A stretch of DNA of 64,000 nt from Raillietiella orientalis (lineage: Eukaryota), in assembly GCA_036172245.1 (NCBI GenBank), contig JAYWIR010000003.1, forward strand, positions 2,914,001-2,978,000. The letters run 5' to 3'. A model generated the notes under the pieces. It ran no database searches and had not been told where the DNA came from. It saw only the letters and a list, made by a program, of their open reading frames with translations. Each line of letters begins with the position of its first letter. Position 1 is the stretch's first letter. A program made the position numbers and the translations under genes. This document shows positions 14,614 to 64,000 of this stretch, piece after piece.

Positions 14614-14614
14614 A
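14571..14614. repeat. (CT)n microsatellite joined to a (CG)n run
   Basis: About 30 nt of ctct followed directly by cgcgcgcgcgcgca. Confidence 0.95.
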
Positions 14615-14619
14615 CGCTC

Positions 14620-27605: not shown

Positions 27606-27609
27606 CGGC

Positions 27610-28450: not shown

Positions 28451-28688
28451 CCCGGGAAGCCAGCGGTTGTACGAAGCGCGCCCCAACATTGCCAACGGCC
28501 CGCAATGGCAATGTTGAGGTGACGCTTGCCACGGTTGTGTGGGCTGCGGCCCTGGCAAGCGTCGCGGGTTCGAATCCTCACATGGAGGATCGACGCCGAG
28601 AAATAGAGGTGAGCCGTGGGTTTCGAGTCCTCCTCTTCCACCACAGGACGACGCTGGTTGACCTCTGTTCGGATGCGGCGACACTGGT

Positions 28689-29409
28689 TGACACCCGGTC
28701 ATGCCGGGGCGTTTTTTTATAAAATAAACATCCATGTCTGTGGCGGGGCGTTTGATTCTGCCACGTTACTTGTAACTACGAGGAGGAACCTGCCGGGAAC
28801 TGTCATGCAGGCCAGCGGAGTTCGCCTGGGCAGCACAGGAGAAGGGGAGACAAACAAAAAGAAAAACATAAAACGAAAAACATACAGTGAAAAAAATGGG
28901 AAGGCTCGGGAAGGGATCACCGGATGCTGGAGAGTGTTCTCTGCACTCTTGTAAGGATGCCGGAAAGTTCCTGTTTTGAGATGGATGAAGATGTGGCCAT
29001 CTTGACGCTGTCCTCATGAAGAGGACAGCAAAAAAAATGGCGACCCTGTCGTTCTGTCCGCCTCTGGCGTTGCTCCATGCAGCCAAGGTCGCGCCGCGTG
29101 GGCAGCACAGTGATGCCGGGAATGCAGCCGTCCTGAGGGCGTCGAACAGGAAGAGGAGCTTTCAAACGTTTCTGGCGTTGCCGCCGGGAGTTCCAAGGGT
29201 CGCGGCAAAGCGTCCCCAGAGAAGCCGGAGGCCGACACAGTCCACTAGGAGGTGCAGGTGGGATTCATGTTCCCGCACCTGAGACAGTTCAGGTACACCC
29301 CCTTCTGCCGTGTCCAGTGATGCCGGTGAACGTTGCACAGGAGGCCAAAGTGCAGCTGCATCAACGCCGACTCCTGTTACTTTAAGGGGAGGATGCGGGT
29401 GTTCATGAG
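28689..29409 (-). mobile_element. 5'-truncated Tx1/L1-like LINE inserted antisense in SINE copy A
   Basis: zf-RVT remnant (HESHLHLLVDCVGLRLLWGRF), T-rich UTR and hairpin terminus. Flanked by GACACTGGT (28680-28688) and CACCGGT (29410-29416). Confidence 0.8.
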
Positions 29410-29799
29410 CACCGGTGGAATTGGGAAACCAGATGCCCCTGTTGACTGACAGAGATTGGGATATCGACCCTTCGGGGTTCTTTTGGGAATCAAGGATCCT
29501 TTTGAGGTTTCCTCCCTTCGGTTGAGAAAATGGAACCATCCATTGAGTATCACAGAGCTGCTTGATACCCGCGTCGGAGAACGTTGCCTCTCCAGAGTGT
29601 CAAGAAGCGCGCTGTTTCCTTCTGGGAGCGCCTCCAAAGAAATTGGAAGGCGTCCCTTTCGGAGTTCTCTTCAGAGTTGGAAGCCAGGAGCGGTTCTCTT
29701 GAGGGAGGGTTCCCTCCGGAGAAGAATGGTGTGGCTCCTTCCGATAGGGGTTCCTCAGGAGAGAATAAGGTAGAAGTCCACTTGGGAAGTCCCCTTCAA

Positions 29800-30050
29800 A
29801 GACAACCAACCAATCGCTATCGAGCATGCACTTCGCTTTCTGCGGATGGAAGCCAGATGGCCCCACCTGGATGCAATCCGGGCCCACCTGGTCTGCATCC
29901 CGTAAACGATGTAGAGGACTCTTTCCGGAGGGTTGTGATCTCTCCCCTGCCCCCCACAATGTTTTTATTTATTTTTATTTCATTTTTCTTCTGTTTCCCT
30001 CCCCCTCCGCTGAGCCTTCCTGGATTCACAGTGTGGTCCCTCCGAAGTCA
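29800..30050 (+). mobile_element. Short LINE 3' fragment inside SINE copy A
   Basis: AGATGGCCCCACCTGGAT is shared with the LINE end near 50560 and is followed by the T-rich UTR. Confidence 0.6.
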
Positions 30051-30253
30051 TCTCCCAGTCTGAAGCTCCCCAGTCACACGCACCCTCGGGGGCTGGCAGG
30101 GACAGCTTCAAAGAGTCTTGCGAGCTTCTGGGCGAACTGTTCTTCAGCACTTTGTGAGCCAAAAAAAGAAGGAAAACCCAAAGAAAAAAAAAACCGGAAG
30201 GAAAGCAGCTGAAACAGAAGAACTCAAAAGGATTTTGCATCATATCTTTATAG

Positions 30254-31159
30254 TGTGATCCCGGAAAGGAGGGAAGTGACTTGCTGCATGGCAGCGAAAA
30301 CAAAACTTCTGCGGGCTTTGACAATTCGGGAAGTGACGGACGCTGCGACTCCGAGTGCCCCACCCCACGGAATTGAAGACTGGGACGAGCTGCTCGGCAA
30401 CCCTCCAGAGGAGGTGAAGTGGCCCCCAGCGTGCTGAAATAGTGGCACCCTCCCCCTCAACTGGCGGGATTCGGTGTTGCTGGTGGTGCATTGGGGGATC
30501 CCGTGCAAAGCTCACCTTCACCATTGGACGTGGGGGGAGGGTGGGTGCTGAGGCAGGCAACAGGCTTGGGAAGTGAGGCGACAGACCCTCCCGCACTTGC
30601 TATTGGACTGTGCTGCCCCCCGACTCCTTTGAAATCGCCTCACGACCATCCTAGAATCCCGGCGGGAGGCCTCAGGGATATTTTCAGACGCCTCTTAGCG
30701 CGTGGTGCCTCACTGCCGCCACCAACCGCGTCCCTCGCAGTTCCCTGCTGTGTTCACGAGATCACGACGGCCCGGAACGCCAGGGAAGAGTTTCCGAACG
30801 GCAGGGACGCCATCCACTGGGCGCGGATCTTCCTGGGGACCGCCTCGAGGTGGTCCCACCTGGGAGCTATACGGACAGCACTTGCCAGCATCCTGAACAG
30901 GATATTGAGGACGCGTGGCAGTGTACCGCTACCCTTCCTCGATTCCCCCCTCCCCGTGTATAAATTCCGCTTCCCGGTTTTGTCTGTTTATTTTCTGTGT
31001 GTTTTGTTTTCCTTCCCCCCCACGCTGCCGAAGCGGACCTCGTCGGTCTGCGTACCGATCCTCGGCAGGTTCATTGCGCGTGGTAGAGCCAACGGTTCTA
31101 CCATAGAAACGTATTTTTATTACGTCATGTAATAAATGCCCCGGCATAACCGGGTGGAA
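30254..31159 (+). mobile_element. 5'-truncated Tx1/L1-like LINE with hairpin terminus
   Basis: Homologous to the 28689 and 53562 copies. Ends AATAAATGCCCCGGCATAACCGGGTGG. Possible diverged TSD ATCATATCTTTATAG (30239-30253) / ATCATCCCTTTTTAG (31160-31174), 12/15 identical. Confidence 0.7.
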
Positions 31160-31559
31160 ATCATCCCTTTTTAGGGAAAGAGGGGAAAAAAAAAACACAT
31201 TTCCAACGCAAAACTTTCGAAAAGGAAATCTCGCCTAGCGTTCCCGGTGTGCCGGAGTTCTCCTCACTCTGCGTTGCATGCGTGCTTCAAGGGGGAGAGA
31301 GGGCGCTCTGGATCTGCTGGCCGACCTCCAGTCCCGATGCCACCCGGGCGAGCAGCCCTCATTCTTTTTTGTTCTTTGCAATGAAGATACTTCGCCCGCC
31401 CTGAAGGCTATGAGAGATCGCTCGACAGATGACAGCAATTCCTCCGACCCTGACATCCTCCAGGCTGGACCTATTCGGCTCCGTGGATCTTTATGTACAT
31501 TATTGTACATAGAAACTACTCTAAATCTACAAAAACTATTGCCGAAGCGGAATCCGCTA

Positions 31560-32272
31560 GTTGATTCTTCAAGATAGGGGTATCCCGGGAGGGGATCACC
31601 CTATGAATCCAGGAAGGGTTCCGGAAAAGGGAATCCGTTCTTCTCACGCTTGGGAGGGATCCCCGAAGGGAAGGCTCTCCCTGGTTGTCTCCGAAAGGAA
31701 TCCGGGAGGGAATCCCCTCCTTTGTTCTCGCCGCTCCAGTTTTCTTCTCCGAAGGGGACCCAGAAAGGACTCCGCTAGTAGAGATTTCTCCTCTGGGGGG
31801 ACCCCCAGGAAAGGAACCGCTCCCGTTTGCTCCTCTGAAGAGAACCCCGAAGAGATGCTTCCGGATTTATTCAGAAGGTGCTCCCCGAAGGGAGCTGCAC
31901 GCTTCCCTGCACTCTCTGGAGAGGCATCATCAATCCAGCAGCTCCATTGTGCGAGACGGAGGGTCCTCTCCCGAAAATAGGGGGTCCGCTCCGTTGCACA
32001 ACCGGGGGGGAACCCCCACTCCTTGATTCTGTTTCCTGGAAGGACCTGGAGGGTCGACTCCCAATTCCGACCGTTCATCGGGAACATCCGGTTTGAACTT
32101 CTACCGGTGCCGCACCCGAAGACGGGCCAGCCAGCGTCATCTTGCAGGAGGAGCTCGAACCAGCGACGCACCCCCATCTCTCGGCGTGGATTCTTTCCGA
32201 GGATTCGAACCTGCGACTCTTGGTGCCACGCGCAGAGACCTCAGCCACATGGTCTCAGCCCACAGGGCGGGC
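31560..32272 (-). mobile_element. tRNA-headed SINE-like repeat, copy C (empty target site near 32103-32111)
   Basis: Reverse strand reads GCCCGC..CTCTGCGCGTGGCACCAAGAGTCGCAGGTTCGAATCC..GCCGAGAGATGG..GGTTCGAGCTCC. Body colinear with copies B and D. Confidence 0.8.
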
Positions 32273-32299
32273 AATCGAAAGTCCTTGCAGGATGCTTCC

Positions 32300-34800
32300 C
32301 TGCTCCAGAGATGAGAATCTTTTTTGAGACTGTTGATCCCATATCCTCCCTAACAGTCGCTCTCTGCTGATCTGGTATGGTCCCCGCATTTCACCACTTC
32401 CATTGGATTCTTCCAGACGTGGTCTTTCTAAGCACCCCGAAAACTTTTCCTGCTCATCGGGGGAGCTCATCTGCAAAACTATCCCAATGTATGAACCAAC
32501 CGGATTGCATGTTTCCTGCAATCTTTATTGCTTGTATACCTATCGGAGAGGTGAAGGCTGGATGTCTTCGAATCCCCTTTTTCCATTGGTCCTGGCTTGG
32601 TAAAGGGTTGCAGTCCCTGTACTTTCCCTTCTTTGTCTCCCAAGAGCGATCCTGTTTGCTTGTTGATGCCCACAGTTTGCATCCCACGTCGATGAAGCCT
32701 GAGCTCGGTGAGTCGTGAAGGGCCTTTTTTTTTTTTTTTCCAACCTACCCGGAGGCATCCTGGAAAGGGATTTCTTGGTGGCCGAATTTCTTTGCAGACG
32801 ATGCCCTTCCCTAGGTGGTGGAAACCCGTCCTGCCCGGAAACCTTTCTGCCACCCTCCAGGTGCTCCTGAACGTGCTTCACACTGGTCTGCCACCGCTCC
32901 CGTTCTCCAGTCCTCCCACGGTGTATACGCTGAGATGTCTGCCACTGAGATCACAACATGCAGGACTCAAATCCTCCTTGCCTGCGAAGGTGTGTCCCGC
33001 ATGCTCTGACGCACGTGGCTCATCGCGGGATCAAATTTTTGTGCACAATTCGAATGTGCCTCTTGGCGCTGTTCGCACCGGGTCGTGCAAAATCTGCGCA
33101 TTTCGATTTGGAACGATGAAGTTTGGGCAGATAAGCCTCTGGATTGGCCAAAGGAGGAAGAAGCCTTGAACAGCCAACCTGAAGTTCCACTCGTTCCAAG
33201 GTCTCCGTTGATGACTTACCCTCTCGTTCGTCCTCTTCATCCGTACCGCTGCTCCAACTGTCGGTTCGGTCCAACTGTTGTTCATTTGGAGAGGTCCCCT
33301 GCGCCCATTTTCTGGTTTCTTTTCGCGTCCTGCAGAGTCAAGCATCAGTTCGTGGAATCACCCGGGGACCCTGGGATCCTCGACGATGGGACCAACTGGC
33401 GGTTATGTAGGCTTCAAATTGAGCTGAACAGAACTACATCTCCTCAGTAAGAGTTATGATAATTCTTCCACATCAGCAAAAGCACCACGAACGGCTTATT
33501 TGCCTAATCGGATTTTTTTCAGAATCGATTACTTATGAAAAGGACACAAAAGACCTGTCTTTGGAAACAGTTGTCTCGTTCACGGATGAAAACCTAGTCC
33601 TGTGGAAAAAGAATGGGAGTGGGCGTACGACCGGTCCACTCATACGTCTATGACCTTGTTTCATGCAAAGATTTCTTCAATTTCATTCATACAAAGCAAA
33701 TATAATGTGCAATGGTCTCTGTTTGGTCTGTCCATTCTTCGATAATTCTTTTCGTCTTAGTAAGCAAAAGTTGATAGCGGTGCCATCTCTGAAGAAGCTC
33801 TTGAGTTCGAGCATTTTGACATAACAAGCCGCGTCATTTCTTTATGAGATTATCGAACTGTTTTCCCTTCAAGCGCTGTGCTTTATAAGTGCACGGCTTT
33901 GAAGACATCTTGCTGCAACCAGCCTAAACAAGCCGGAGATACTTCCAGGATCCTTCAATACGAATAATTCACGATATGAATGTATTTATGAGGTACAGCG
34001 ACATTTATAAGGGAGTGCACCCCTCAGCAGTCTTCAGGGTCTTCGCGACCGAATGTGACCGTTGCAGCTCTGACTGGTTAGTCGGAGCTGCATCGGACTG
34101 GTTCAGTTCCGGAATCAGCTCCTGGAGGCCATTCATCTGTGCCATCATCCTCATCTTCCAGAAAGACACCGGGTGTTCCATCAGAGGGATGATCCATCCA
34201 GTGAATCCCGCAGGAGTCTTCTCATCAGATGCATACGTGTTCCGCTGACAGATTCTCGACGACTCGCCGTGCCGTTCCTTCCTCTGGCACATCCTTCCGC
34301 CTTCGCTCAGTTTAGAGTTGGGCGTCCCCATTTCTATCGTTCAAACTTTGAACTCTTGAAAAAAGTTGCTTCTGGATTTCCTCAGGCTGCTGTGACCACT
34401 TTACTCCTTTCACTCGCGTTGTTCTTGTTCGACTGTCCGAAATGCGAGATGCGGACGAGATCCGTGGAAGGTGGTGAAAAGTGGCACTCCTCCAGAATGT
34501 TCCTCCTTCCGAAACATTTGCTGCTGCGAGGTGTCTTCGGTGTCATCAGCATCTCCACCAAGCTCAGAATTGTCTTCAAGCTCTTCCGGAATGGCGAGGA
34601 TCCAGCGGAAGCCTTCCGACGAAGAAATCGTTTTGCTGCTCAGTCACCACGGAGAGAAAACGCTCGTTTGAAGATTAGGCGCAAGAAGATGACATTGCCC
34701 AATCACACATCCCATGATGAAATGACTCCGGTCACATCCACTGCATAGGATCTCGGAATCGAAATGCCCTGCACGCTTCCGTTTCCCGGATCGATTTCAT
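32300..34800 (-). mobile_element. Decayed L1/Tx1-type LINE (RT to C-terminus)
   Basis: GISIPRSYAVDVT (cf. YADDVT), RICQRNTY..PAGFTG (cf. RV..L.P..GGLG) and C-terminal LHVVISVA. Confidence 0.55.
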
Positions 34801-37791
34801 GTGAAATTTATCCTTCTCCGGGATGTATTCTAAAACACATTCCTTTGTGAACATGGAAAGACCGCGCGCACCATTACTGCTATCAGAGGTGAGCCAACAT
34901 AAACGAATGATCCATTCATGTATCGCCTACTTTCTCATCCTGAGCCTACTTACCCCGAGATAAATTGTCCTTAAGGGATCCCTTACCCGAATCCCTGCAA
35001 GTAACTGACTAAGGCAGGCATCAGCCGGATGGGCTTATGCTCTTCCATCTATTCCATATCCATTTCATATTCTATCCCCCTTTCTACAAGAAAACATTTC
35101 CTAAGAACATACTTTTAAGTTCAGTAAACGGGAATAATTGTCTGATGTACACTAATTAATGAGGTAAAAAACATGTATTCGATTAAATATTCATACATAT
35201 ATACGAGACGATTCTGTCACAAACTGATGTCTTTCAGGAAGGGAACCTCTTGAACAGATGGTTTCATCCCGAATTCTGTGTTCCGTGCGTTCGACTTGGA
35301 TGTTCGTTACGATTCATCCGGTCAGAACTCCTCCGCAGATCGTTAGAAACGGTCGCACGACGGAACGCAGCATCTGCTTCTTAATTGCGTACCCGTTTCC
35401 AAGTGAGGATACCTTTAAGGTCCGACTGGCGCTGCCAAGGTGGAGTGCTCGAGACGTGGAATTTGCTTAGACCAGACAGTGATGGAGAAGGAGGCCATCA
35501 CTGTCTGCTCCTGCCACACCTGCAAACGAGATGGCCGCTCTCAACTGTCAGGCTGCTGCCCACGAGTCACCAAGGGCGCCCAGTCTTTCAGTCCCGGAAA
35601 GTGAAACATGATTCGAGCCCAAAGTAGAAAACGGATGGAGTTTCCCGAATTGAAGGCTTCCGTTCGAACCGGTGCTTCCGAAAAATAGCCATTTCATTCC
35701 GAAGTTCGAATCCCGCACGAATTTCTTGCAATGCCCTCCCCCCTCCCCTCCCGAATGAAATCTTCCCCCCCCCCCCCCCCCCCTTGCATCGTGAAAAGAT
35801 GGGTAGGCAGTGCACCGCTGGTCATGGTGATTATCGAGGAGGGCAAATAATAATAAATTACACAAATCCGTCTTCCGTGAGCGAGAACTTATTTGAGATT
35901 CGCGCTCCTTTCGCAGCTTCCCATAAAACCTTGTGAGGAAGTTTGTTGGCACGTGAAATTTGGAAAGGGGGATTTATTTAGCAAAGAGAGGTGACCCCCG
36001 TGCTGAGAGCACAATTTTGGGGACCTCCTACAACGCATGGATTCAGCAGGCATCCCATCCGTAAAAAGCACTTCGTGTATGTTCCGAACTCTCCAAAACC
36101 CAAACCACTGACTTCCAACCGTCTCCCTTTTCTCCGTGGAAGATGAGTGATGGAGATGAGCCACCCCCTCGTCGTCTGCGTCAGTGACAAATGGAGATGC
36201 TCTCGCTCGATGGCCATCACGTATCGTCAAACAAAAAGCTCCCATTTTCGCTGCCGCCTGAACACTCGCGCGCGGTCGTCGAATCTTCCCCAAAAAAAGG
36301 CCGTTTGGAGCAGAGCAACTATTTAGCAGGTACGGATTAATTGCACTAATGGCTCTTTTGAATACGAATGTAACTGTGCCTCGTTTTTTTAGGGAATGAG
36401 GAAGGAACTCGTCGTAATCCGTTACCGGAACAATGAACTGCAAAGTGCCGTTTTCGAATTCGACCAAACGGTCCAGAAGATCGCACCCATAATCGGGAAT
36501 GCAAGTAATTATGATGAGAGCACGAAATGAGAGACTGAAATCTAACGGGAAGGGTATTTCGGTAGTTGAGTATAACTGAGGATCTGATCGGAGTGGGAGG
36601 TGCTCGCGGAAGGCTCGTGCTCACCACCCTCGTCACGCAGCATCCTTGGCGATTCCAAGGCGCCGGACCCCCTCGACTCCGTAGGGAGCTCGGTATGAAA
36701 GGGAAACGGAACGGGTCCACAATTTCGGCCTAAGCCTCCGCCCGAAAGGCGAGCAGCGAAATTACAAAGCGCTGAATAAAACATATCGCACTTCCCATGG
36801 CTGGGAGTGTGTGGAAGGTGAGCAGATCGAAAGGTTGAAAGTTGGTGCGAGAGCACGTGAAAGCGAGAATCGACGAAGCTTCTTGCTTTCACCTAGGAAG
36901 AAAGGATCGAAATTGGACGCTGCTGCCGCGGGCGATATCACTCATGCGATGCTCCTGTGTTGGACATAAGTGCCAACACCTACACGAATCGGAACTGTTT
37001 CTCTTGCGAAAGTCGCGAAAGTTGGTTTGGACAGGCAAGCAGTAGAAGCTGGCAGGTGGACCGGGTGCAAAAATCCTCCTGGTTGAATCACGCTGTGAAA
37101 TCTCACACACCCCTCGAAGGTACGGGAATCGGGACGGAGGAAGTTCGCATTCCCTCCGAGATTGTGGCAAAGGGCTTTCTTCAGCTTTCGGAGGAGTGTT
37201 ACCACGTGTCTTTATGCCCGCCTGCCAAGCAGATACTGGTTGCCAAGACGAGTTTCTAATTCGTTTGCCTCTGCTAAGGATTGCCTCAAAAGATCATTTT
37301 GAAAGTCCGAACATACGAAATTTTTACATCTTCAAACTGGCTCCTCAAATAACTTGGGATTATTTCTGCACGCATGGTTAATATAATACGGTTAATAGAG
37401 CATAGGATGGAAGCGCTCAATCCATCTCGTTATGAGTTTTAAATAATGAGTAACATGAATAATAATGTACACCTGCTAAGGCTGTTAGCTGCACTACATT
37501 CGTACACTGACAAGCAGAACATCGGAGATAAATTCATTGCACGAGTCATCGACGTGTTGACTCGAACACGGCGCACCACGGAAACGCGGAAGTATTTGCA
37601 ACTGTCCTCAGGAATTGAGTTTTCTTCAACATCCACTTACGACGAGAGGAAAGGAGATCGCCACACATGAACACCGCCACTTGTAAATACACGTACGGCG
37701 TCATGAACGACGAATACCGTAATATCGACAGATTATCCTCCCTTCTAGGGAATCACTTCTTCCGAGTGAACAACGTCAGTAGACAGGGCGT

Positions 37792-38082
37792 GTCGAACAG
37801 ACTGTTACTATAAACCTTATTCATCTTATGGATACCTAATTCAACATCGAGGTCTCGAAATTTCACATCAATTAGAACTCTCCATGAAAATTACGCTGTT
37901 ATCCCTTAGGTAACTTTTTCTTCATTTCAAGATCATTATTACTTCATATAAAATTATTAAACCATGAAGATAAATTCTTCATTCTTCTGCCCCAGATAAC
38001 ATCCTATCGAAATTTCATCCTACCATTACACTCTCGACTTACTCAAGGACACTATTTCTAAAGGGTCTTCTCGTCCCTTAAA
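37792..38082 (-). pseudogene. NUMT: fragment of mitochondrial 16S rRNA (rrnL, domain V region)
   Basis: Reverse strand carries conserved metazoan rrnL blocks in order: GGGACGAGAAGACCCT, GTTACCTAAGGGATAACAGCGTAAT, GACCTCGATGTTGAATTA, AGTCTGTTCGAC. Isolated ~290 bp piece in nuclear context. Confidence 0.92.
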
Positions 38083-38299
38083 CCGTGTGCATTCCAAAAT
38101 GGAATTTTCCTCACCGAATGGAGCAAGTCACAAAGGTGATGCATGGCAGCTCACCACCCTCGTTCTTGGTGATTCCAAGGCACGCGACTTCTTGCTGCAA
38201 GACGTAAGCTTCTTATAGGAATCGAGGACACCCTTCGGCACCGTTAAGGGGGGAAGGAATGGCTCCTATGGAGCAACGGAATGATCCGCAGCATTAGTC

Positions 38300-40242: not shown

Positions 40243-43200
40243 TCAAGTGGATGTCTCGTGCTTTTGCTTATTCAGTAATGATGAAAATAATAAAGCAACT
40301 TGCTCCTTCGAAGGACAACTAATCAGCTGTTGCTCTTCACTGTTATAGTGTTCACCAACAATTGCTTCCAACTGACTAAAGCAGTACGAAACGTTTGCTT
40401 GTATAGGTCTAAACAAAAGTAATTCTGTATCTGCATTGCCAAGATACAAATTCAAACTATGAATAATCTTTGGAGTCATTGTTTTTATGTTTCTTAAACA
40501 AGTGGCTATCAAATGTGCCAGATTTTCAGCACAAAAATCTTGAGCATGGGTATCTTTCCCATGAACAAAAGATATGAGGAACTTCTGCAATGGACCCACA
40601 AGCAACTCTGTATTATGTTTAATGAGTTCCTGGCATGATGCTCTAAGCTGGCTGTTTGCTTCTTTTTTTGAGTCCACATAATAATCCACTACTTGAGGTA
40701 AGCCCTTAAGAAAAAATTCCAGGACAGCATTAGTTGGGTCCAAACAAAAAATCTGGCTCTTTTTTTCTAGGAGCTGCACAGCTGTAACTAGACTGTGCAG
40801 TTATCCTCATTACAAAAATTTAGTACCTGCGGTCTTGAGAGGAGAAAAATCTAAGCTTGTTTCTTTGACAGTGAAATCGGCGGCAAACGAAATAGTCTGT
40901 TCCCTTAAAATGAGCAGATGTTTTATCAAAAACAGAAGTCCATCCTCATGACTCTAAGCAAATAGCACACAATTTTAACAAAATCAGATCTCCTCAACTG
41001 ACCTTTGTTTCACTAATTATCTGACTAGCTTTCTGTAAACTCTGTACACATGCAGACAATGCTTCCTGTGACAAACCCTTTAGAACATCTGGCTCCAAAC
41101 AAGATCGCAGGCGAGATAACACAGTCAAAGTATTTCGAAGACTAGGATACCACATTTCCAACAAATCAGCTGGAGATGCTACAAGGAAATGATTAGGCTA
41201 TTCATTGATATTCATTCTCTACAACCAGCCACAGCTTCTGGTAATCTGGGTGAAGGGTTTGACTGGTCACCATCCAAATTTAAAGCACTGCCTTGATAAT
41301 CCACTGCTTTAGTTCTGTCAACAGTAATAGGTTTTGTTGCAGCATCTTCCTTCAGAACATTCTGCATGGCGAAACTTTTTGTGAGACACTTCAGTAGTTC
41401 TAAACTTACAAACCTGAACAATTTCTAAATTCGCTGGATAAGATAAATCACCTGGTGAGGGTCGATAACCAAGAATGTCATTTTTGAAAAAAATGTGGGA
41501 CCGATAAATCAGCCGCTCCTCAGCATCATGCAGCAATTGTGATAAGACTGTTCCCAATACTCGGTAAATCTTTGCTAAACATAAATGGAAGAGGTGATGG
41601 GCAAAAATAGAAAATACGTTTTTTCAAGATAAGGTCTCCTAACAATTCCCATTTTAATATGTTGCATAATTCAGCTAATATAGGCACACTCTCTTGATGA
41701 ACAACAACTTCACAAAGACTGTCATATAGTGGAGTACACAGCTGCTCTAAAAAATCACTAAAATTCGCATTGACAAAATAATAAACAGAATACTTACTTA
41801 CTCCATTTGGGTGCACAACTGGAGGAAAAAATGGTAATAAAGCTGATGCTCATCTTCACAAATATGGGCCAACAGAGAACTGGAAGATCTTAGTATGTGT
41901 CCTAAGTCTCTGCTATGAATAGGAATTACCCAGTGCATATCCATGACCCTTACCTTCTGTGAGAAGCTATTAATCCTCCAATAGTAGATACAATACTAGC
42001 CTTTAGTAAAAGTAACCTCTGTTTAAAGTAACATTGTAGAATATCATCATACAAATTGGAATACCTGTACAAGTATAAATTACATAAACAAACGACTTAT
42101 AACAATTACTCAGTTGATGTTGGAACCCTGTTTTCAACTTCTTTAGTCAAGAAGGCAATTTTCGAAGCATGAGAAAGGAACCTTCCGTAAAAAAGAGAGA
42201 AAATATCTTGATTCGAACATTTCTCCACTTCCACCAATTGTATATTTTTTACTGCTGTTGTAAGAACTGTACAAATATGCATGGAGATCATTTGTAGACA
42301 CTTGTTCCTTCCATTATCCAAATTGCTAAGGCATTTCGGAGTTTCTTTATAATTTTCCTGTGGCACAAGGAAAAAATGAACGTCATTTTGCAAAATACAT
42401 TTTGAAACTTACATGCTTCTTGAAAAACTCCAGCAACTCATCAAATTTACTCAGAACAGAAACAATGGAAACATTATCCACTGTAAAAGTTGGCAAACTG
42501 ATTTTGTGGCATAACAATTCCGCTTCATCGAAGTGCTTCAAATCCTTACAAATCTTCTCCATTTTTTGGGTGCTTTCCATCTGAATAGTTATTGTTGAGA
42601 ATCAAAAACATATTTAGGATACTATTACTTGCTCCTGGATAAGTTTTTCACATGCCTCATTTAGACCATGTGTTTTCTGAGATGCTGATAAATGCATTCC
42701 TTTAAGTTCTTTCAGAGATTCAATGGTTCCATTAAATTTTGTAAGTATACTGTGACATTTTCCACTGTAATAATCTAAAGATTCCATGTTCTGGAGGTAT
42801 GGAGACACTTCCCTCAGAACGATTTTTGGTTCCACTTGTGCACACCATGAAAAATACTAAAATTTTACAACAAAGCGAAAATGAAACAACAAACCCATGT
42901 GAAGGTTAACAAATGCAAATAAACAATGCTTGTTACACCATGAAGATGGAACCTTTGCCACTAAAGTCAAAATGACAGATCATTCAATGAGAAAAAACAA
43001 ATGCAGCAATAACATTTGAATAATATTTTGCAAAATTTCAGTTCCAATTTTGTTTTTCATGATCATTTTAAAATATTCCTTTTGTACACATGAAACTTTA
43101 CAATGCAAACAATAGCTATGCTTTAAAAAGAGCTCAAAAGTCCTAATTTTAGACTTTTGAAAAATTGGTTGCAAACCAATTATCCTTCAGACATAGGTAA

Positions 43201-45385: not shown

Positions 45386-45733
45386 ACTATAAATATTTTG
45401 TACTAAAACACTGTGGAAACTTTATATACTGCAGCTTCCTGAATCCCAACATCCTGTGATAAAGAAACACCTTGTCAAAGAGATCATTAAACCAATTATG
45501 AGGCTTAAAACAAAACTGGTTTTATGCACACATTAGTTTCTTATTGTGAACTGTTAAACACATACCCCTTCCCTCCCCCCTCCGATGCTTTTATTTTTTT
45601 AAGTTTTTCCTGATCTTACAACAAACCCACAAAGGCACTCCTCAGATAAGAGACATTCTAATCTTGAAGTACGGATGACTACGGCAATCTTCGGTTTAAT
45701 CTAACATAACCAATCGAACTAAATCGAACATAC

Positions 45734-46050
45734 CTTTCCAAATCTAACAGAATGTAACACCGGAAAACAGCACCATCCACGCACACGTCCTTAACATTCA
45801 CACACATGCTTTCTGTTTGACAGTCAGAGCTCTACAGTGATCGTCAATGTTGAGGAGACAGGGAAATTACTCAAGTCGCGCATCCTTCGAAAACATGTTG
45901 CTAGATCTGTATGTTAAGTGTACAGGATCTGTAAGTACGGGTCGATTCTTCCTCGAGTCCGCCTTTCAGCAGTCGCACATGGGCGATCGCGTTCACGCAA
46001 CGGAATCGTCCACATCGATGCAGTGATACCACTCTTTGCTCTTCTAGTAT
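45734..46050 (-). promoter_or_regulatory. Likely COG3 non-coding first exon and promoter
   Basis: Strong donor AAG|GTATGT at 45734/45733 pairs with acceptor CACAG at 45454, upstream of the ATG. CpG density rises here compared with the gene body. Confidence 0.5.
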
Positions 46051-46899
46051 CGGCAATTTCTCTCTCCCTCTGTCCATGAAATGCAGATCGTTGCCCCAAT
46101 GATCATCGTGATTTTTTTTCTGAGCAATGCGATGATATACACACCATTCGTATGCACTGAGCTTTTACGTAACCAGAAGATGTAGCAACGTGCATTGCTT
46201 AAATTGGGTTCTTTGTTTGCAGGAAGTTCATGCATTCTTCCAAGTACTCTCTGTTATCGATGCCAGTAAACAATGTACAGTTTGCACTGAATGTTCTTTT
46301 TCCTGGTGGTGTACGAAAGCGGGAAATGGAAAATTGGAATTCCACTTCAAGGAAAAAATTTTTAGGCACTTTCGTCTTCTGGTTTCTGTTTTATAAATTT
46401 TTGCATCGATGATGAGAAGGTTTCTTTCCTTCTGCTGGGAACAACTGCAGTGGATTCACAGCAAACCGACAATAATATAAGATGCACACATTCTCGAAGG
46501 TGAAGGTTGCTTTATTTTTTAACAAAGGAAGGAATGATTTAGACAATCTTAACGCAGCCTGCATTCGGAACACTGCGAATGAAAAGCATCACGGATACTG
46601 CTCAGCACCGTGTCACCAATAAAACAAAGTTCAGTGAACTTGATTAGAGAACGATGTTTTCCTTTGTCAAACCACCCTGCTTCCTTGTCTACGGTTTGAG
46701 GGACACTGTGTAGGCTGAACTTCCTGCACTGCTTTATTCAACTTTTTTCTGAGAACCACTATCTTATGAGAATGTTTCCGTTTTCGTGCTGGATCTTCTA
46801 CAAAGTCACTTGCTAAAACATTGCTCAACTAAAAGTGAATACCATAAAGCTTGTGGACATTTTTTCTTCTCTCTCTCTCAAAAAGGGACCGTTTTTCAT

Positions 46900-48080
46900 T
46901 CCCAAACTGCTTACTATTTCCTCCTAGCTTGAAAATAATTAACGATTCAAAAATTATCAAACTGAGCAGGCATGACGTTGTGTATTCACAGGTTAGGTTC
47001 CCGCATTTGATTCGTTTAAAATATCTCATTCTTTTGTGTTGAATAGAGATGAAAGCGTTCCCATAGGATTTCATAGAAGACGAATGCAGAAACCAGACTG
47101 CAAAGGCAAGGGAATTCCCCTTGGGGATGTACCCAGAAACCCATGCTCCCAGACGGCCTACAGAGATACATGCGCATAACATATCCGACTTAGGAAAACT
47201 CGAGTATAGTAGTAAGAAAGACTTTTGCCAATTGGAAATTCCGACCCTCGACTTGCAGCAACAACTGATTATTCATCATAGTGCTTGCGAATGGTAGAAA
47301 TTGTTCAAATTGGATTTGCCCGCACACCAAACAAAACACGTATTCAATCAACGAAGGGATTTTTATCTTGATTTTCCTTGGAAGTTTTGAAGGGGCAAAG
47401 CATTCCAAACATGTCTTCGGAATGCACAATGTAGATCTCTCCGAAATTTCATGCAGGCTAATGATGACGATCTGGGGATCCCAGAAGAGCTCTATGTACG
47501 TCTTTTCTTTTCAGTCAACACCTCGCAAAAGCATGAGTTGAAGGCGGGAATTCTGGAATATGAATGATACGAAGATTGCTGCTGGACTTTCACACGTGTT
47601 TCGGATGAAAGCAAAACTTTAGTTTAAAGGAGAACTATTTGTAGGAAGCCAAACTGAGACTCCTCCACTTTCTCTACATACGGTCGTTTGCTCCCTCTTT
47701 CCTCCCGAAACCAAAGCACGGCTTCTGCGTTTAGCTGTATACACTTACGTAAAAATATATCTTTCGCAAATATATCTTGAGCCTCCTTTTCTGGGACCTC
47801 GTGAGCTTCAGGAAGGCTATCCCTGATTATTTTTGTCTTTGCAGATTACTGAATATAAGGCAATCAATTATACACATATTTTGGTATTAGATCTCCTGCG
47901 AAGTATCCATAGTATTCTGAGGCATTTATTTCTGTGAGCTTCTCCTCAGCAGTATGCAATTCCGGTAATTCATCAAACCGCTTTTGTTCTCTTCTTGGTT
48001 TGCTGGGCTCATTTGATACATCGAATATCCCTGGGCATTCGGGACTGTCTGCATGCTGGGTTTCAGAAGATGTAGTGTGG
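46900..48080 (-). pseudogene. MRPS30: Intronless pseudogene of mitochondrial ribosomal protein S30 (mL65)
   Basis: ECPGIFDVS..LHTAEEKLTEINASEYYGY..YN*LPYIQ*SAKT (cf. EYPPILDLS..TVEEKLFEINMPRYYG..YNSLP..Y..RT), then VD*..IELFW, GFWVHPQGEF (cf. PGFWPGD..EF) and T*PVNTQ, all colinear. Multiple stops and frameshifts. Confidence 0.7.
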
Positions 48081-48554
48081 TGAAAACTGCTAGAAACGCT
48101 TAAATAGAGAACGGGTAGAACGGGTGGGTGGTAACCTTGGTTCGAAATGTCATAATGAATTTTGAAAACGGGGTCGGTGCTGATGCATCCAAGAAGCACA
48201 GTGTGACTCACAATATTCAATGGTGTTACTCTCCACTGTCTCCTCAATCAAAACATATGGAACGCTTAGTTGAAAAGGATAAACGATGCTGGAATGTACC
48301 ACACCTGTGCGAGACCTATTTACACGTCTCTTATAATCATCAAAGCACATCTGAAGCTTCTTCGCAACCGCTTTTGGCGGGAACATACTCTGCATTCTGT
48401 TCCTGCTTGTTCCTTCAGCTGCATTTCGGCGTGCAATGCTCAAAGTCATGTGAATCGTGACTATTTGGGAACTGCGAGGATATTTCACGATGCGTGTATT
48501 GGAAAAATGATGGGGACGACGTTTGTGGAAATGGAACCTGGACGGCGAAAATGG

Positions 48555-49420
48555 GCCCGCGTCGGAGTTAAGGCTTCCGCGCGTGGCACCATGCATCGCG
48601 GGTTCGAATACTCCGGCAGAAACTGACGCCACTGCGTCGTTGGGTTCCGAGTTTCTCCCGCGATGGCGCTGGTTGGTCGCGCCATTCGGGAGTGGCACCG
48701 GTGGTGGTTCAAGCCGAGAGGCCCATGAAGAAGGCCAGAACAATGGGAGTCGACCTTCGGGTCCTTCCAGGAATCAAGGAGTGGGGAGTTCCCCTTCCGG
48801 TCGTGCAGCAGAGAGCGAACCCCCCACACCGAAGGGTTCCCTCCGAAGGGTTTCAAGATGGAGCAAGAGCCTTCACAGGCACCTCTCCCAGCTGTTTAAA
48901 GGAGCGGACTTCCCCCCGTTGTGGGGGGGACCCTCCAAGTTGCTGCCTCTCCAGAGAGTGCAAGGAAGCGAGCGAGAGCGATCCCGCTGAGGGAAGCTGC
49001 AGCGCCTCTTCTGAATTTCGGAAGCGTCCCTTCGGGTTCTCTTCAGAGGAGTGAACAGGAGCGGTTCCCTTGCGGGTTCCCTCCGGAGAAGAAATTCCTA
49101 CAAGCGGATCCTTTCCGGGTTCCCTTCGGAGAAGCTGAAATGGAGAGGACCACCCCCATTACGGGGGGTGTCCCTCCAGAGAGAATGAGGAAGGCGATTT
49201 CCTTCGGAATTCCTGGATTCATAGGGAGGACCTCCCCTTCCGGGGTGCCCCCTTATCTTGAAGAATTACACGCACCCTCCGCGGGTGGATTGGACCAGTG
49301 TTAAAGAGCCACGTGCTCTGCGACGCACGCGACGACTCATAAGGTACTTAGCGAATCAAAAAAAAGAAAACCCTAAGAAAAAATGAAAAAACAGCGAAGA
49401 CAGAGAAGAACCCCAGAGGA
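48555..49420 (+). mobile_element. tRNA-headed SINE-like repeat, copy D (near full length, empty target site 48694-48702)
   Basis: GCCCGCGTCGG..CGCGTGGCACCA..GGGTTCGAATAC head, shared body, CACGCACCCTC..CAGTGTT and A-rich tail. Confidence 0.8.
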
Positions 49421-50459
49421 TTTCCATTCCAGAAATGGAGAGATTTTTGCAAGTTTTGATAGCTACATCCATATTAAATAATTTCTAGGACTTCCAGCAT
49501 GTGTGTGTGTGTGAAATACCGAGAAAGCGACCAGAGGAAGCTCCAGCCTGCTGGCTGGAGCCTCCTCTGTTTTCGACTTTGCAGAGGTGGCGAACTCCAT
49601 TCCCGATTTACGACTGCTCTTTGACAGCTTAAATTTCCGAACGAAAAACTTCTATTGGTGCTCTCAAGCATCCAGGTTTCAGTTCTCAAGATGCTCCGTA
49701 AAGATATCCTCAAAAACAGAAATCTGCACAGTTTGAGCAGAATCTGATTCCATCGACTGCATTATCCGAAACGTGTCTGCCACTGTGCTGTGGTGGCAAT
49801 GTCCATCTTCAACGGTGAATGCTTTGACCGCGCCGAGGTGGTGGGAGAAAGTAAAGACCCGTTGTGAATCGGGAAGAATCGCAAGAAAAGACGAACCAGG
49901 GCTTGCGTTCGTCTTGATTGCAAAAGTCCATTCTCCCCATTCCTTCTTTCTGGCAACGCCTAACGTTTCCTTTCCATTTGAGATTACATTGGGAGCGAGG
50001 TTTCATGGAGCAGCAGTCTCATGCGTGTGTGTGGTCACAGCTATCACGTGCAGCTTTCGTTTCTTGGAACAAAGAAACTCTACGGAAACGACAAAACTCA
50101 AAGGCCGAGTTTTTGAATCCGAATCCCCTTGGACAAACGTAATCGTGCGATTTCAGTTCGCAGGTACCAGAAGAAAAGCCAAAAAAAAAAGAAGGAAGAG
50201 GGGGGCAGCAATCTATGCTACAGGATTTGGAGAAGAGAGTTCCTTCAATTTTTCGGATTTTCCCGGGATACCCCCCGCCATCACGATTATCAGCTCGTAT
50301 GATGATAAGTGATTCTAGATCTGATGCATTAAAAGCTTTGTGTTCACCCCATTTCGCCCCAAAAAGCATTTATTGAAAAAATAAACGTAGCATGAATGAA
50401 TAAATTCCAAGCAGGGTCAGCATGACAACAGCATTGCTGACCTGCGTGAATCCGCGTGC

Positions 50460-50863
50460 TTTCATGAGTTCGAATGCTTTCCGCATCCGCCTCGACCCGC
50501 TCACCATGGATTGACGGACGAAGTCGAAGACTTAACCTCCGAATTCTTGAGGAAAGCGTCGAGATGGCCCCACCTGGATCCAGGAATACGGAAAGAGCTT
50601 GCCGTCATCCTGGGAAGGATGCAACGGCCCCAGCAGCAACTGTGATCCCTTCCCGTACCCTCCCACTTTTTCTTTTCTTTTTGTTTAGTTTTTTGTTTTT
50701 CCCCTTCTCCCTGCTGCCGTGGTGGACCGAACCGGTCTGCGAACCGGTGACCCGGCAGGCTCTGTGTTTCTTCGTGCGTGGCTGGAGCATTGGTCCAGCC
50801 ACTGCACGTCTTTGTAAAAGTTTATTGTTTCAATAAGCGCCCCCGGCGAAATCCGGGTGGAAA
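50460..50863 (+). mobile_element. 5'-truncated LINE 3' end with hairpin terminus
   Basis: GATGGCCCCACCTGGAT, GTGATCCCTTCCC and T-rich UTR, ending CAATAAGCGCCCCCGGCGAAATCCGGGTGGAAA. Confidence 0.75.
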
Positions 50864-52399
50864 TCGAAGACCCAACCCACCCAACCTACTTCGAGACGCC
50901 CTAGCCCGCGAAGGAACGGTCCTAACGAAGACGGGTATTTGATTAAAGAAGTACAAGCGTCCAACACGCGAGCATTGCAGGCTTTAGAGAGAGAAAGGAA
51001 AAAAAAAAAACAGGAGAGGAATTATCTCAAAAGGGTACTGTGAAAGAGCACTTGCCTGTCATTCTTTTGCAGATCGTCGAATCTGAACTGCTTCGCTGCT
51101 TGGTCAGGTGCCCGACGTGAAAGTCTTGTTGAAACGAAGAGCATTATACCTCTGTCCTGCTGCAGATGCTGAGCGCTTTTCCAGTCGTGGAGGGCGACGG
51201 CCGTGCCGCTTTTACAAAAAGGAAGCTAGCCATATTTCTGGGCGGTCTTTGCAAGTGTTTTTGTTTTGATCTTGCACTCTTACTCTCAAGACACAGAGTT
51301 CCATAACGCCTTTGAGATAGTGAAGAACAGCGCTCGACGGATGCAGATTCGAGAAAAGGGGAACTTCGCAACGGCGCCAGGCAGGCGTTAGAAAACCAAG
51401 CGCTCCCTTATCCCCACGTTCAGTTGCGACTGAGGTCATTTCATAGGAGGGTTTCTCCCAGAGGAACTCACTCAGGTGATCCGTCTCCTCATCACGACGT
51501 GAACGCAACTCCCAACGAAAAGGCGCGGCAGCTGAATGCAACGAGCATCTCTAATTTACAGTGTGCTGGTTGTGAGAATTTGGTCTCCCGAAGGAAAGGT
51601 GCAAGACGAAGAGCTCCCATCCGTGCTGCTTTTCAGCAAACCAACGATGACTCCCCATTACTGCTTTCGTCAGCTGATGAATATCAGGAAAGGAGGGGAG
51701 GGGGGGAAAGGAAAAGGAAAAAAAAAAAATCAAGAGGAGCATTTCTTTGACTAGAAAAGCAGCAATCTTTGGTTCGTTGCGGATTCCTGCCGTGCAACTT
51801 TAGTAGGAGTCCTGGGGCATCAGCTCACTCCGTGTAAGCTCATGGACAAACAAGGCTGACGCTCGACCTCACTTGTCTGGCAGCGGACAGTTCCGAGCGC
51901 CGAACCACCGGTTTCGGAAACTGCCTTGCTCGTGACGAGTTGTCCAAAGCAACTCTGCATCCAGCTTCCATGGAATAAAAGCAACCGTGTCCGCTAATTT
52001 AGAGCGCTCCCACAAAGAGAATCAGTCTGCCCTTTGAACCGAAACTTCAGTTGCCATTTAACCACTCTATTCGGTCGCACGCAGCAGTGCACTTTACCTG
52101 CGCTGACCCCAGCATTTGCAATAACAGCATCATTAGTTCATAATTCGGTGATATATTCATGCTCAACAGAAGTGATGTAATATTGATTATTATTTTTTTT
52201 TTTTCGAACCTCTGTGGTAGTTGCTTCGGTGTGAAATGTTCAGATGGCACTATTGGCGTATGATTTCAATCAACCGAGATTTGGCCGTAGTGGAGAAAAT
52301 TGGTGTCAACTTCGAAGACTAGAGTTTTTTTTTTTTTTTTCATTATCCTTGCTGTCTTTCGTAGCGGTTCCCTTGAAACTCTTTGAGGTGCCTCCATAC

Positions 52400-53300
52400 A
52401 CCCGAAACGCAACTGACGACTGCAGCCAGAGAGTGTTCGGCACCACCTAGCGGTTCTCTCTTGAAGCTTCGAACAAACAGTGCTTGCCGTGGACGCCTTC
52501 ACCTGCCGTCCAGCGCTCCATCTTCTCCTCAGAAGCAACTCATCAGAAGAGTCCCCCCAAAGAAGCGAATGCCCTCCCAGGACGCTCCTGCCTCCGTCGA
52601 CCGCACTCCACCGGCGTCGACCGTTTTCGCAGAGCCTCGGACGCGGAGCATTTTGGGAGATCCCGGCAGACCCGGATGTTTGGATTCTGTGGTCTGGATT
52701 TCGTTCGGATTCTGGACCTGAGCGTCGACCCGTTCTTTCGGGGATCTGGTGGACAAGAAAGCAGAAGCAGAGGGTGGGATCCCTTGAGTCACCCCTGGAT
52801 GCGATGATTTCCCCCACTAAGGAAAACGAGCGCTGCAGCTTCGTGACCCGAATTTCTTCTGGCATGTTTTTTTTGTGCGTGTCATCCGGAGGATAAGCGT
52901 TGTGCCCACAGCCTGCGCATCTAGGAGACTGCAAGGTCACAGTCCAAGATAAAGTGGTCCAAACCGCTTTGATGAGGATAGGTACGAGTGATGGGAGGCA
53001 TATCGGAGCCGGAAACAGTCAACGGGGAGGCCGGCAGCCAGCTGCTCCGAGAGACGGAAGAGGAGCGCCCCCGCCGCAAGGCATCTCCAGCAAGGCAACG
53101 GCAAGCGCACGCAGAGAAAATGCAGGCATCCGAAGTCAACACGTAACACCAAAGAGTGGCGTGGTTGTGTCTGCCGTCATCCGAGGGAGGAGCGTTCGCA
53201 TGGCCGAGGCCGGACTTCCGCCGAGGGATGAGGACAGAGATACGTCGCCCCCTCCTCCCCTATGGGCCACCTCTGCCCGCGCAAGCGGTCGTTAGCGCCA
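52400..53300 (+). mobile_element. Decayed LINE RT fragment
   Basis: GNSQRGGRQPAAP (cf. RGVRQG.P.SP). GC-rich like the other LINE remnants. Confidence 0.35.
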
Positions 53301-53417
53301 CCCACCCCGGTGCTGCTGGGACGCGCACGCCGCGAAAGGGGGTTCCTTTCGCTCCGCCCTTTCCCCCGCTTTCTCTGCCTCGCGAACAGCACCTACTCGT
53401 CGAATCCGCGAAAGAAG

Positions 53418-55000
53418 ACCCGCGTCGGTGGTTGTGTGGCTGCGGTTTCCCGCGTGGCACCACCAGGCGTTGCGGGTTCGAATCCCCGCGTTGAGCATCG
53501 ACTCCGAGAAATGGGGGATGCAAAGATAATGACGGTTGGCCTATTCAGGTGTGACACTGGTTGACACCCGGTCATGCCGGGGCGTTTTTTTATAAAATAA
53601 ACATCCATGTCTGTGGCAGGGCGTTTGATTCTGCCACGTTACTTGTAACTACGAGAAGGAACCTGCTGGGAACTGTCATGCAGGCCAGCGAAGTTCGCCT
53701 GGGCAGCACAGGAGAAGGGGAGACAAACAAAAAGAAAAAAATAAAACGAAAAACATACAGTGAAAAAAATGGGAAGGGATCACCGTGTGCTGGAGGGTGT
53801 CCTCTGCATCCTTGTAGGAATGCCGGCAACTTCCTGTTGCAAGACTCCCAGATGGAGTCATCCTGACGCCGTCCTCGTGAAGAGGACAGCAAAATAGATG
53901 CCATCCCTGTCGTCCTGGCCTCCTCTGATGTTGCTCCGTGCAGCCACGCTCCCGTCACACGGGCAGCACAGTGCTGCAAAGGCTGGCTGCAGGGCGTCCC
54001 GCACAAAGAGGAGCCGCATCACGTGTCTGCATTGCCGCCGGGGGTTCCAAGGGTCTCCGTGAAGCGTCCCCAAAGGGGCCGAAGGGCAACACTGTCCACT
54101 AGCAGGTGCACAAGGGATTCCCGCTCCCCGCACCTCGCATAGTTCGGGTCCACCCATCCACCCACCCGTGTCCAATGAAACCGGCGGGCGTTGCACGGGA
54201 CGTCCCAATGCAGTATCATCAACGTACACTCCTGCTACTTTGAAGGGAGGGTGCGGGGTGTTCAGGAACACCGGGGGCCACTGCAGGTCTTCCTCCAGAA
54301 TACCCAGTGGCACGCCCCAGCTCAAAAGTAGCGCGAGGTCGAGCATTCAAAGCAGCAGCGCCGGTGAGCTGGTCCGTCGTCCGCTCGTCCAGTTCTTTCC
54401 TCTTTCCGGAGGTTTCCACGGTAACCTCCCGTCTGGCCGTAAGGCTGCTGCCCGTGTGCTCCCTAAGGGAGGGCAGCGCAGCGGCGAGGGACGTTCTGCT
54501 TGCCCGTGCACTCTTCACGGGATCTTCCAGGATCTCCCGAAGCGGGCAGTTGTGGTTGCGCGCGTACAGGAAACGCACGTCGCACCTGTTCCGCGCCCAC
54601 GTGCGCACGGTTTCCTGCAACCAGGCACCACCGTTCGCGAGATCCATCCGGTTTCATTCTTTCGAGTGGCCACCTGCCGAAGGTGCAGTCCGCAGTGGAT
54701 GAGGCTGCGTGGACGACGCGCCAGGAAGGACGCGAGTCCCACGCTGCCGGTGGTTCGCTGGACGAGAAGGCGTGCAGGTTGGCACCAGGTGGTGCTCCAG
54801 AGCTTTGCCACGAGCGCCAAAGTTCGAAACTGGAGCTGCAGCTCCGTTTGCTCCAGCGTCAGAAGGCCTAGACACTGGTGGAAGCCGAAAACCCCCGATG
54901 CTTTCGTTGACTGTCCAGGATTTGGAAGTTGACTCTCCCCAGGGTCCTTCCAGGACATCAACAGGTTCTTCGGGGTTGCTTTCCAGTTGAGAGAATGGGG
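53418..55000 (+). mobile_element. tRNA-headed SINE-like repeat, copy E, interrupted by a LINE
   Basis: A-box-like TGGTTGTGTGG and B box GGGTTCGAATCCC. Body resumes at 54871-55000, matching copies A, C and D. Confidence 0.8.
53562..54870 (-). mobile_element. 5'-truncated Tx1/L1-like LINE inserted antisense in SINE copy E, 9-bp TSD
   Basis: ILHWDVPCNARRFHW..DPNYARCGERESLVHLLVDS..LWGRF (zf-RVT). Direct repeat GACACTGGT at 53553-53561 and 54871-54879. Confidence 0.88.

Positions 55001-62290: not shown

Positions 62291-64000
<1,710 letters not shown>

Follow-up and report, generated by a model that had tools for sequence, protein, structure and literature searches.

Can a retrotransposon enter another mobile element twice at the same nucleotide? 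This question is raised by a window of 64,000 nucleotides of the Raillietiella orientalis genome (contig JAYWIR010000003.1, positions 2,914,001 to 2,978,000), in which two of the five copies (A to E) of a repeat resembling a short interspersed nuclear element (SINE) are interrupted at one and the same position by 3' fragments of a family of long interspersed nuclear elements (LINEs). An earlier note on this DNA had proposed that a Tx1-like LINE inserted there independently, by means of a site-preferring endonuclease. The analysis was carried out on this single 64-kb window and therefore deals with two occupied and three empty SINE sites.

A shared insertion site in two SINE copies

The occupied and empty sites are the following:

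28536..28688, plus strand: head of SINE copy A, whose last nine nucleotides (28680-28688) are GACACTGGT; profile positions 31-157 correspond to 28556-28693
28689..29409, minus strand: LINE fragment A, 5'-truncated, 721 bp, found by nhmmer and by BLAST to copy E
29416..29808 and again 30001-30195, plus strand: continuation of SINE copy A (profile positions 137-557 and 609-722) with its A-rich end, the latter aligned with copies B and D
53437..53561, plus strand: head of SINE copy E (profile positions 6-159), whose last nine nucleotides are the left target-site duplication (TSD) GACACTGGT
53562..54870, minus strand: LINE fragment E, 5'-truncated, 1309 bp, found by sequence reading, BLAST and nhmmer
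54871..55004, plus strand: right TSD GACACTGGT (54871-54879) and continuation of SINE copy E (profile positions 145-265)
10390..10398, minus strand: empty site GGCGCTGGT in SINE copy B (9851-10533), by profile and alignment
32103..32111, minus strand: empty site GGCACCGGT in SINE copy C (31559-32248), by profile and alignment
48694..48702, plus strand: empty site GGCACCGGT in SINE copy D (48561-49322, with an A-rich tail to ~49400), by profile and alignment

In copy E, the nonamer GACACTGGT is present at 53553-53561 and again at 54871-54879, a 9/9 repeat that brackets the 1309-bp insert. Copy A carries the same nonamer at 28680-28688, followed by a 721-bp insert that reaches ~29409, after which the SINE resumes at CACCGGT (29410-29416). 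The 5' junction of this insert is ambiguous within CACCGG (29410-29415), and the homologous place in LINE E reads CACCGGGGG. Both inserts are antisense to the SINE, begin at the same nucleotide and have the same 3' end, with different 5' extents. The stretch 28680-29418 aligns with 53553-54277 at 80% identity over 744 columns, both in BLAST and in nhmmer, and the SINE profile is broken at the same position in the two copies (31-157 then 137-557 in A; 6-159 then 145-265 in E). All of these elements of the earlier note were verified, namely the coordinates, the perfect TSD of copy E, the two truncations and the three empty sites.

Concerning the distribution of the site, GACACTGGT occurs at both occupied sites (2/2) and at none of the empty ones (0/3). 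Both copies that carry a tail of the A/E type lie at the SINE site (2/2), three of the five SINE copies are empty there, and the tails of sister families that retain a 3' end lie outside it in 4/4 cases. The shared site is real and non-random.

The host repeat

A profile built from the three uninterrupted copies B, C and D recovers 5/5 copies in the window: B at 10533-9851, C at 32248-31559, D at 48561-49322, and A and E in pieces (28556-28693, 29396-29808 and 30001-30125 in A; 53437-53568 and 54872-55001 in E). These five copies are dispersed, with unrelated flanks, and cover ~4% of the window. The repeat had been described as a short element, a description that has to be corrected: profile and alignment give a length of ~800 bp, above the usual SINE range, and an A-rich tail, which is seen at the 3' end of copies A, B and D. 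As for TSDs around the SINE copies themselves, the single candidate is a weak 8-mer in copy D.

The head of the repeat was searched for a transfer RNA (tRNA). ARAGORN predicted 0 genes in it, and Rfam gave no tRNA match for copies C and E at the gathering threshold or at E<=1-10, its sole match being one at chance level to the tRNA-like mascRNA (E 5.8). By eye, a T-arm-like sequence GCGGGTTCGAATCCCCGC with a B-box-like GGTTCGAATCC can be recognised in copies A, C, D and E. As far as this evidence goes, the host would be a SINE-like retroposon with a tRNA-like head.

Two further observations concern the body of this repeat. Its 3' region (49280-49310 in D; 9860-9890, minus strand, in B) contains GGGTGG...GAC(C)AGTGTT, which is like the terminus of LINEs A and E, GGGTGTCAACCAGTGTC. 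This motif, GGGTGG...GACCAGTGT, is internal, and the SINE runs on from it for ~100 bp to the A-rich tail; the resemblance to the LINE end may be due to chance or to an old LINE-derived module. Moreover, an internal LINE-like piece lies in sense orientation within SINE copy A (29819-30021, plus strand), between profile positions 557 and 609.

The LINE family

The remaining LINE-related features of the window, together with two segments of LINE E, are listed below:

30334..31163, plus strand: sister LINE 3' fragment F, 59-62% identical to E, found by nhmmer outside the SINE site
26816..27606, plus strand: sister LINE 3' fragment G, found by nhmmer outside the SINE site
50540..50864, plus strand: sister LINE 3' fragment H, with the candidate 8-bp TSD TCGAAGAC, found by nhmmer outside the SINE site
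29819-30021, plus strand: the internal LINE-like piece, matching E positions 981-1180 and with no 3' end, found by nhmmer
~55005-55095, minus strand: short antisense sister-family tail, AATAAATGCCCCGGCAAATACGGGTGACAAATCA in LINE orientation, found by eye
53562..53785, minus strand: 3' tail tract of LINE E, with an AATAAA-like signal, A-rich sequence and two hairpins, ~98% identical to 28689-28925 in A
54022..54234, minus strand: degenerate, zinc-knuckle-like C-terminal segment of open reading frame (ORF) 2 of LINE E, RCGERESLVHLLVDS, by translation

Related tails at other places had been mentioned in the earlier note as a caveat, and these rows bear it out. Projected onto E, fragment F spans positions 513-1322, G 488-1321 and H 995-1320, so that they have a common 3' end and varying 5' truncations. 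H is bracketed by an 8/8 repeat of TCGAAGAC (50524-50531 and 50864-50871), which with the preceding bases reads GAAGTCGAAGAC versus GAAATCGAAGAC, its target also resembling the LINE terminus; no TSD was found for F and G at k=8. The antisense tail that cuts SINE copy E at ~55004 stands ~125 bp beyond the first insert, so that this copy hosts two LINE tails at different positions.

An AATAAA-like signal and two hairpins are common to all six tails, each of which finishes with 7-12 terminal nucleotides, and poly(A) is present in none of them. In one of the hairpins compensatory changes are seen, and the terminal one has the form CCCCGG-loop-CCGGGTG. RNA folding of the 238-nt tail gave an unremarkable z of -1.54. 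On the plus strand of copy E the terminal hairpin occupies 53567-53581 and is followed by T7 at 53585-53591. Read in SINE sense, 28694-28718 and 53567-53591 (plus strand) thus both present a hairpin CCCGG-TCATG-CCGGG and then T7, ~30 nt past the junction. This arrangement looks like an RNA polymerase III (Pol III) stop that would cap a SINE head transcript of ~190 nt.

Regarding coding remnants, the putative zinc knuckle is intact only in G (CRGCGEVESLPHLPFDC, 26940-27122, plus strand) and is decayed in E, A and F. Zinc knuckles of the zf-RVT type have the form Cx2Cx7Hx4C, and the knuckle of the insert is presumably compatible with the L1/Tx1 group. In the ESM Atlas, zf-RVT was the annotation in 24/30 of the nearest named clusters of the E segment (best score 0.95, 180 shared features), and the G segment led to one cluster with zf-RVT on 29% of its members. 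Pfam hmmscan on 10 hand-picked LINE segments, zinc knuckle included, gave nothing relevant even at E<=10. Among the 376 stop-to-stop ORFs of at least 75 amino acids across the window, 0/376 matched RVT or Exo_endo_phos, a result that says little about the family because the fragments are too 5'-truncated.

Searches for relatives were likewise negative. Neither the G ORF nor the E zinc-knuckle segment nor a 6-row profile matched any of the longer proteins in word-indexed searches, and a PDB profile search gave two chance matches only (E ~0.9). Metagenome contigs were scanned for the tail hairpin as an exact pattern, and likewise for a degenerate form of it, with 0 loci in each case. The AlphaFold2 model of the 61-aa G segment, computed without an alignment, had a mean predicted local distance difference test (pLDDT) score of 52, too poor for a fold search. 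The sole match of the G ORF in phmmer, run against 1.84 billion representatives, was a repetitive 2434-aa protein; its only Pfam domain is Lantibiotic_a and BLASTP shows low-complexity repeats in it, and it was rejected as spurious.

Given the common 3' end, the two 3' hairpins, the absence of poly(A) and the zinc-knuckle-like ORF2 C-terminus, the insert behaves like the 5'-truncated 3' fragment of a non-LTR retrotransposon (LTR, long terminal repeat), that is, of a LINE. The label "Tx1-like" in the earlier note, on the other hand, receives no support from any test performed here, since neither reverse transcriptase nor endonuclease is found in the window. Many Tx1 families prefer particular targets, a trait that does not strictly define the clade.

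One insertion event or two

The two LINE fragments are not equally similar along their length. From the junction inward, ~235 bp match between A and E at 205/210 positions (97.6%), whereas the body matches at 380/498 (76%; Fisher p 4e-14), and the identity falls to 76% within ~20 bp beyond the tail. CpG decay does not account for this contrast, because differences of 1.4% in the tail versus 20% in the body remain after CpG transitions are removed. A general constraint on tails fails as an explanation as well, since the tails of the sister families are barely better conserved than their bodies (62% vs 59%, 56% vs 49% and 63% vs 65%). Nor is the ~235-bp tail likely to be a young element of its own, in plus orientation and with an A-rich end; this idea was dropped, given that tail and body are contiguous and in register in F, G and H.

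The SINE is more diverged still. That the SINE flanks of A and E are more diverged than the LINE tails was confirmed: the p-distance between A and E is 0.37-0.385 in their SINE parts, 0.243 in the LINE bodies and 0.022 in the tails; the bootstrap intervals of these tiers (0.374, 0.243 and 0.022) do not overlap, and the difference between SINE and LINE body has a Fisher p of 0.0004. Outside the SINE, local alignment of the DNA upstream of copies A and E gave z=0.8, as against z=21.6 for the SINE head and z=6.7 for the part after the site. The homology between A and E thus ends at the SINE edge, which indicates two separate SINE insertions rather than a segmental duplication; the latter was ruled out by the upstream value. 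Neither A nor E has the other as its nearest kin among the SINE copies: the p-distance between them is 0.385, compared with 0.316 for A-B, 0.338 for A-C, 0.332 for E-C and 0.368 for E-B. In the maximum-likelihood tree of the SINE parts A, B and E are grouped (99/97), and A is placed, weakly, with the empty copy B (68/71).

A and E probably represent two separate insertion events, for three reasons: their loci lose homology at the edge of the SINE, their SINE copies are not nearest kin, and the TSD of E is perfect. Several observations weigh against this interpretation. The approximately unbiased (AU) test on the SINE parts does not reject a clade of A and E (p-AU 0.26). Transversions are equally frequent in SINE (27/230, 11.7%) and LINE body (51/477, 10.7%; p 0.70), so that the excess divergence of the SINE consists entirely of transitions. 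The junction nonamer does not differ between A and E, in contrast to the SINE DNA next to it, which is ~60% identical, and A has three extra nucleotides beside it; such a nonamer looks like a product of shared descent, or like LINE-derived sequence, rather than like two independent TSDs. The 5' junction of A lies in the CACCGG microhomology, as a later deletion would also leave it. Both LINE bodies are degenerate, with frameshifts and lost cysteine residues, and if the insertions were as young as the 98% identity of the tails suggests, the 24% divergence of the bodies would need two sources with near-identical tails. Finally, there are just two occupied copies (n=2). The claim of independent insertions made in the earlier note is therefore sustained as regards the limit of homology, the kinship of the SINE copies and the TSD of E, and weakened as regards the AU test, the equal transversions and the 5' junction of A.

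A single ancestral insertion would account for part of this picture, and is considered unlikely. The LINE would have entered one SINE once, and the composite would then have been copied to the second locus; A would have lost ~590 bp by deletion from the CACCGG of the LINE to the CAC(C/T)GG of the right-hand target, and the ~235-bp tail would later have been homogenised between the loci by gene conversion. The identity of the nonamer and of the tail at the 3' junction, the unrejected A+E clade and the equal transversion divergence all fit this scenario, as does the 5' junction of A, which falls precisely within the microhomology to be expected from such a deletion, and conversion is permitted by the distance of 25 kb and the same orientation of the two copies. 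However, as the homology ends at the SINE 5' edge, the composite would have had to move as a SINE-bounded unit. Oligo-T is described as a Pol III terminator in PMC4494074, and SINE transcription through the insert should accordingly stop at the hairpin and T7 situated ~30 nt past the junction. Furthermore, the SINE exceeds the LINE body in total divergence as well as in indel density, copy E lacks a segment of 24-32 nt that A has in common with B, C and D, the TSD of E is still perfect, and a conversion tract restricted to the tail and flanked by 76% and ~60% identity is an ad hoc assumption.

Proposed mechanism and site choice

The preferred reading, two separate events, can be extended to a mechanism in which A and E are retrotransposition events of one LINE family at the same SINE nucleotide and in the same orientation, guided by an enzyme or by priming; for this more specific model, confidence and doubt are about evenly balanced. 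Two different, old SINE copies would each have received a 5'-truncated antisense LINE copy. The LINE machinery would nick the SINE sense strand at ...CAC(T/C)GGT^GGAA, and the freed 3' end ...TGGT could pair with the last bases of the LINE RNA, which by homology with the sister families would be ...GGGUGUCAACCA, with ACCAGUGUC at the RNA terminus. This pairing would prime reverse transcription of the LINE RNA. A cut of the second strand 9 nt away would produce the 9-bp duplication of copy E, and in A the 5' end of the complementary DNA (cDNA) might have been joined through the CACCGG microhomology between LINE and target.

The ends of the elements are consistent with such priming. By homology with F, H and the tail at 55005, the LINE terminus is GGGTG plus 7-8 nt, with TCAACCA in A and E. 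The nonamer, ACCAGTGTC in LINE orientation, overlaps this terminus by ACCA (~4 nt), again by homology with the sister tails, an overlap that fits a nick at GGT^GGAA with ...TGGT pairing to RNA ...ACCA. The 8-bp TSD of sister copy H likewise overlaps the LINE terminus, as priming by terminal microhomology would have it. The endonuclease preference proposed in the earlier note is one candidate explanation, and pairing of the RNA 3' end with nicked DNA would fit the same data. A nonamer found at 2/2 occupied and 0/3 empty sites agrees with a specific nick or with a pairing requirement, between which five sites cannot decide. With two copies in one window, a site preference is suggested, not proven.

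The site could also have been reused without any sequence-specific enzyme, although this appears rather improbable. In that case the SINE segment GGTGCGGCACC..., which is nearly palindromic, would act as a hot spot because of fragility or structure, or would be a lookalike of the LINE end, and LINE RNA would capture a nick or break at this place through base pairing. The target TGACACTGGT and the adjoining LINE end TGACACCCGGT agree at 10/11 positions, and both the ~4-nt overlap of terminus and TSD, drawn from homology with four sister tails, and the restriction of GACACTGGT to the occupied sites are in line with it. On the other side stand the small sample, two occupied and three empty sites, and the fact that sequence alone cannot separate a hot spot from endonuclease specificity.

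The young tail on an old body calls for an explanation, and three possibilities are conceivable: two decayed source lineages that shared a tail, conversion of the tail, or re-entry with cDNA replacing the resident tail. The last can be extended into a proposal that we regard as a doubtful one. The LINE would be site-specific for the SINE position, with a pairing of ~9 nt between the RNA 3' end and the nicked SINE strand largely setting the specificity, and would re-enter sites that are already occupied, its cDNA recombining with the resident copy and overwriting the tail. Because the 3' junction retains the target half-site and the nonamer, target-primed reverse transcription could begin there anew, and a tail of 98% identity together with the nonamer on bodies of 76% identity would thereby be explained. 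Lastly, two unrelated random insertions at the same place can practically be dismissed, because this idea has nothing in its favour except that repeats are densely nested in this region, and demands the same nucleotide, orientation and adjoining nonamer in a repeat family covering ~4% of the window, a chance of ~1e-6 by our own arithmetic (two insertions, ~4% of the window, the same nucleotide and orientation in a repeat of ~800 bp).

Genes and other repeats of the window

The window is animal nuclear DNA in which exons of COG3 and MEIOC are present:

41321-42856, minus strand: COG3 exons (C- and N-terminal domains)
62294-63569, minus strand: MEIOC exons
47867-48247, minus strand: MRPS30-like match, weak (E 9e-4, below the cut-off)

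The genes are AT-rich (32-40% GC), and the repeats have 55-58% GC and are nested together in GC-rich stretches. A 10-kb block at 10000-20000 has 54-58% GC and many long ORFs on both strands; no Pfam match was obtained in it and, apart from SINE copy B at its start, it shows no similarity to the rest of the window. A pair of inverted repeats of ~104 bp with 81% identity, ~600 bp apart (23834-23937 and 24529-24629), may represent the ends of a small DNA transposon. Moreover, a fragment of a pogo/Tc5-type DNA transposon lies at 55318-55988 (minus strand), with a match to HTH_Tnp_Tc5 above the cut-off (E 1.5e-6) and a weak one to DDE_1 below it.

Comparison with known systems

LINEs that insert into other mobile elements are already established, which makes the present finding incremental rather than a new principle. 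According to PMC4494074, LINEs of the Tx1 clade, and SINEs associated with them, enter other transposons at fixed positions, in some cases using one site more than once. Examples include Tx1L, found in the piggyBac-type Tx1D of Xenopus, Tx1-Mar in Mariner-N4_AMi and Tx1-9_AMi in Harbinger (Kojima 2015, PMC4494074), as well as Tx1-8_Crp/Tx1-4_AMi in LTR elements (PMC4494074). SINEs with small nuclear RNA (snRNA) heads share Tx1 target sites there, with tandem re-insertions, and one site is seen to be reused where tandem SINEU-3 copies sandwich the TSD (PMC4494074). The locus described here is like these transposon-targeting LINEs in that a LINE occupies a fixed position and orientation in a multicopy mobile element, with 5'-truncated copies and TSDs of ~10 bp. 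It is unlike them in that the host is a SINE-like retroposon, a type of target that the passages of PMC4494074 consulted here do not mention. Furthermore, poly(A) tails are present on the SINEU elements that Tx1-Mar mobilises in the same source, whereas the element in the window ends in a hairpin and 7-12 nt, with no poly(A). The two copies found here compare with 77/88 in PMC4494074.

A second group of sequence-specific LINEs targets RNA genes and microsatellites. According to PMC4494074, PMC4640811 and PMC5035012, it includes Keno in U2, Kibi and Koshi in (TC)n and (TTC)n, R1 and R2 in 28S ribosomal DNA (rDNA), and Utopia in U2. The resemblance lies in a precise, repeated junction with a defined target, possibly aided by base pairing of the RNA 3' end to the target. 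In contrast to the targets of this group, the one described here is a diverged interspersed repeat, and no array of occupied units is seen in the window.

The so-called stringent LINEs, as the passages of PMC4494074 on Kajikawa and Okada (2002) describe them, have a 3' stem-loop that is recognised by their own reverse transcriptase and shared with partner SINEs. The two 3' hairpins kept in six tails of diverged families, together with the absence of poly(A), are reminiscent of these elements. The SINE here differs from such partners: it is an antisense target and does not share the tail, and it has an A-rich 3' end of its own.

A literature search that did not extend to the target tables in the supplement of PMC4494074, which may contain further types of target, brought up no LINE with specificity for a SINE. 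Should the site preference hold across the genome, a SINE would join the safe-harbour targets of sequence-specific LINEs, a list that so far comprises rDNA, snRNA genes, microsatellites, DNA transposons and LTR elements. With a length of ~9-20 nt, the target would also be compact enough for studies of site choice by an endonuclease or by RNA-DNA pairing, and the mosaic of young tail and old body could preserve a natural trace of several insertions at one site. Compared with the systems above, the combination of a SINE-like host with a hairpin-ended element that lacks poly(A) is possibly a new member, or a variant, of the transposon-targeting LINEs.

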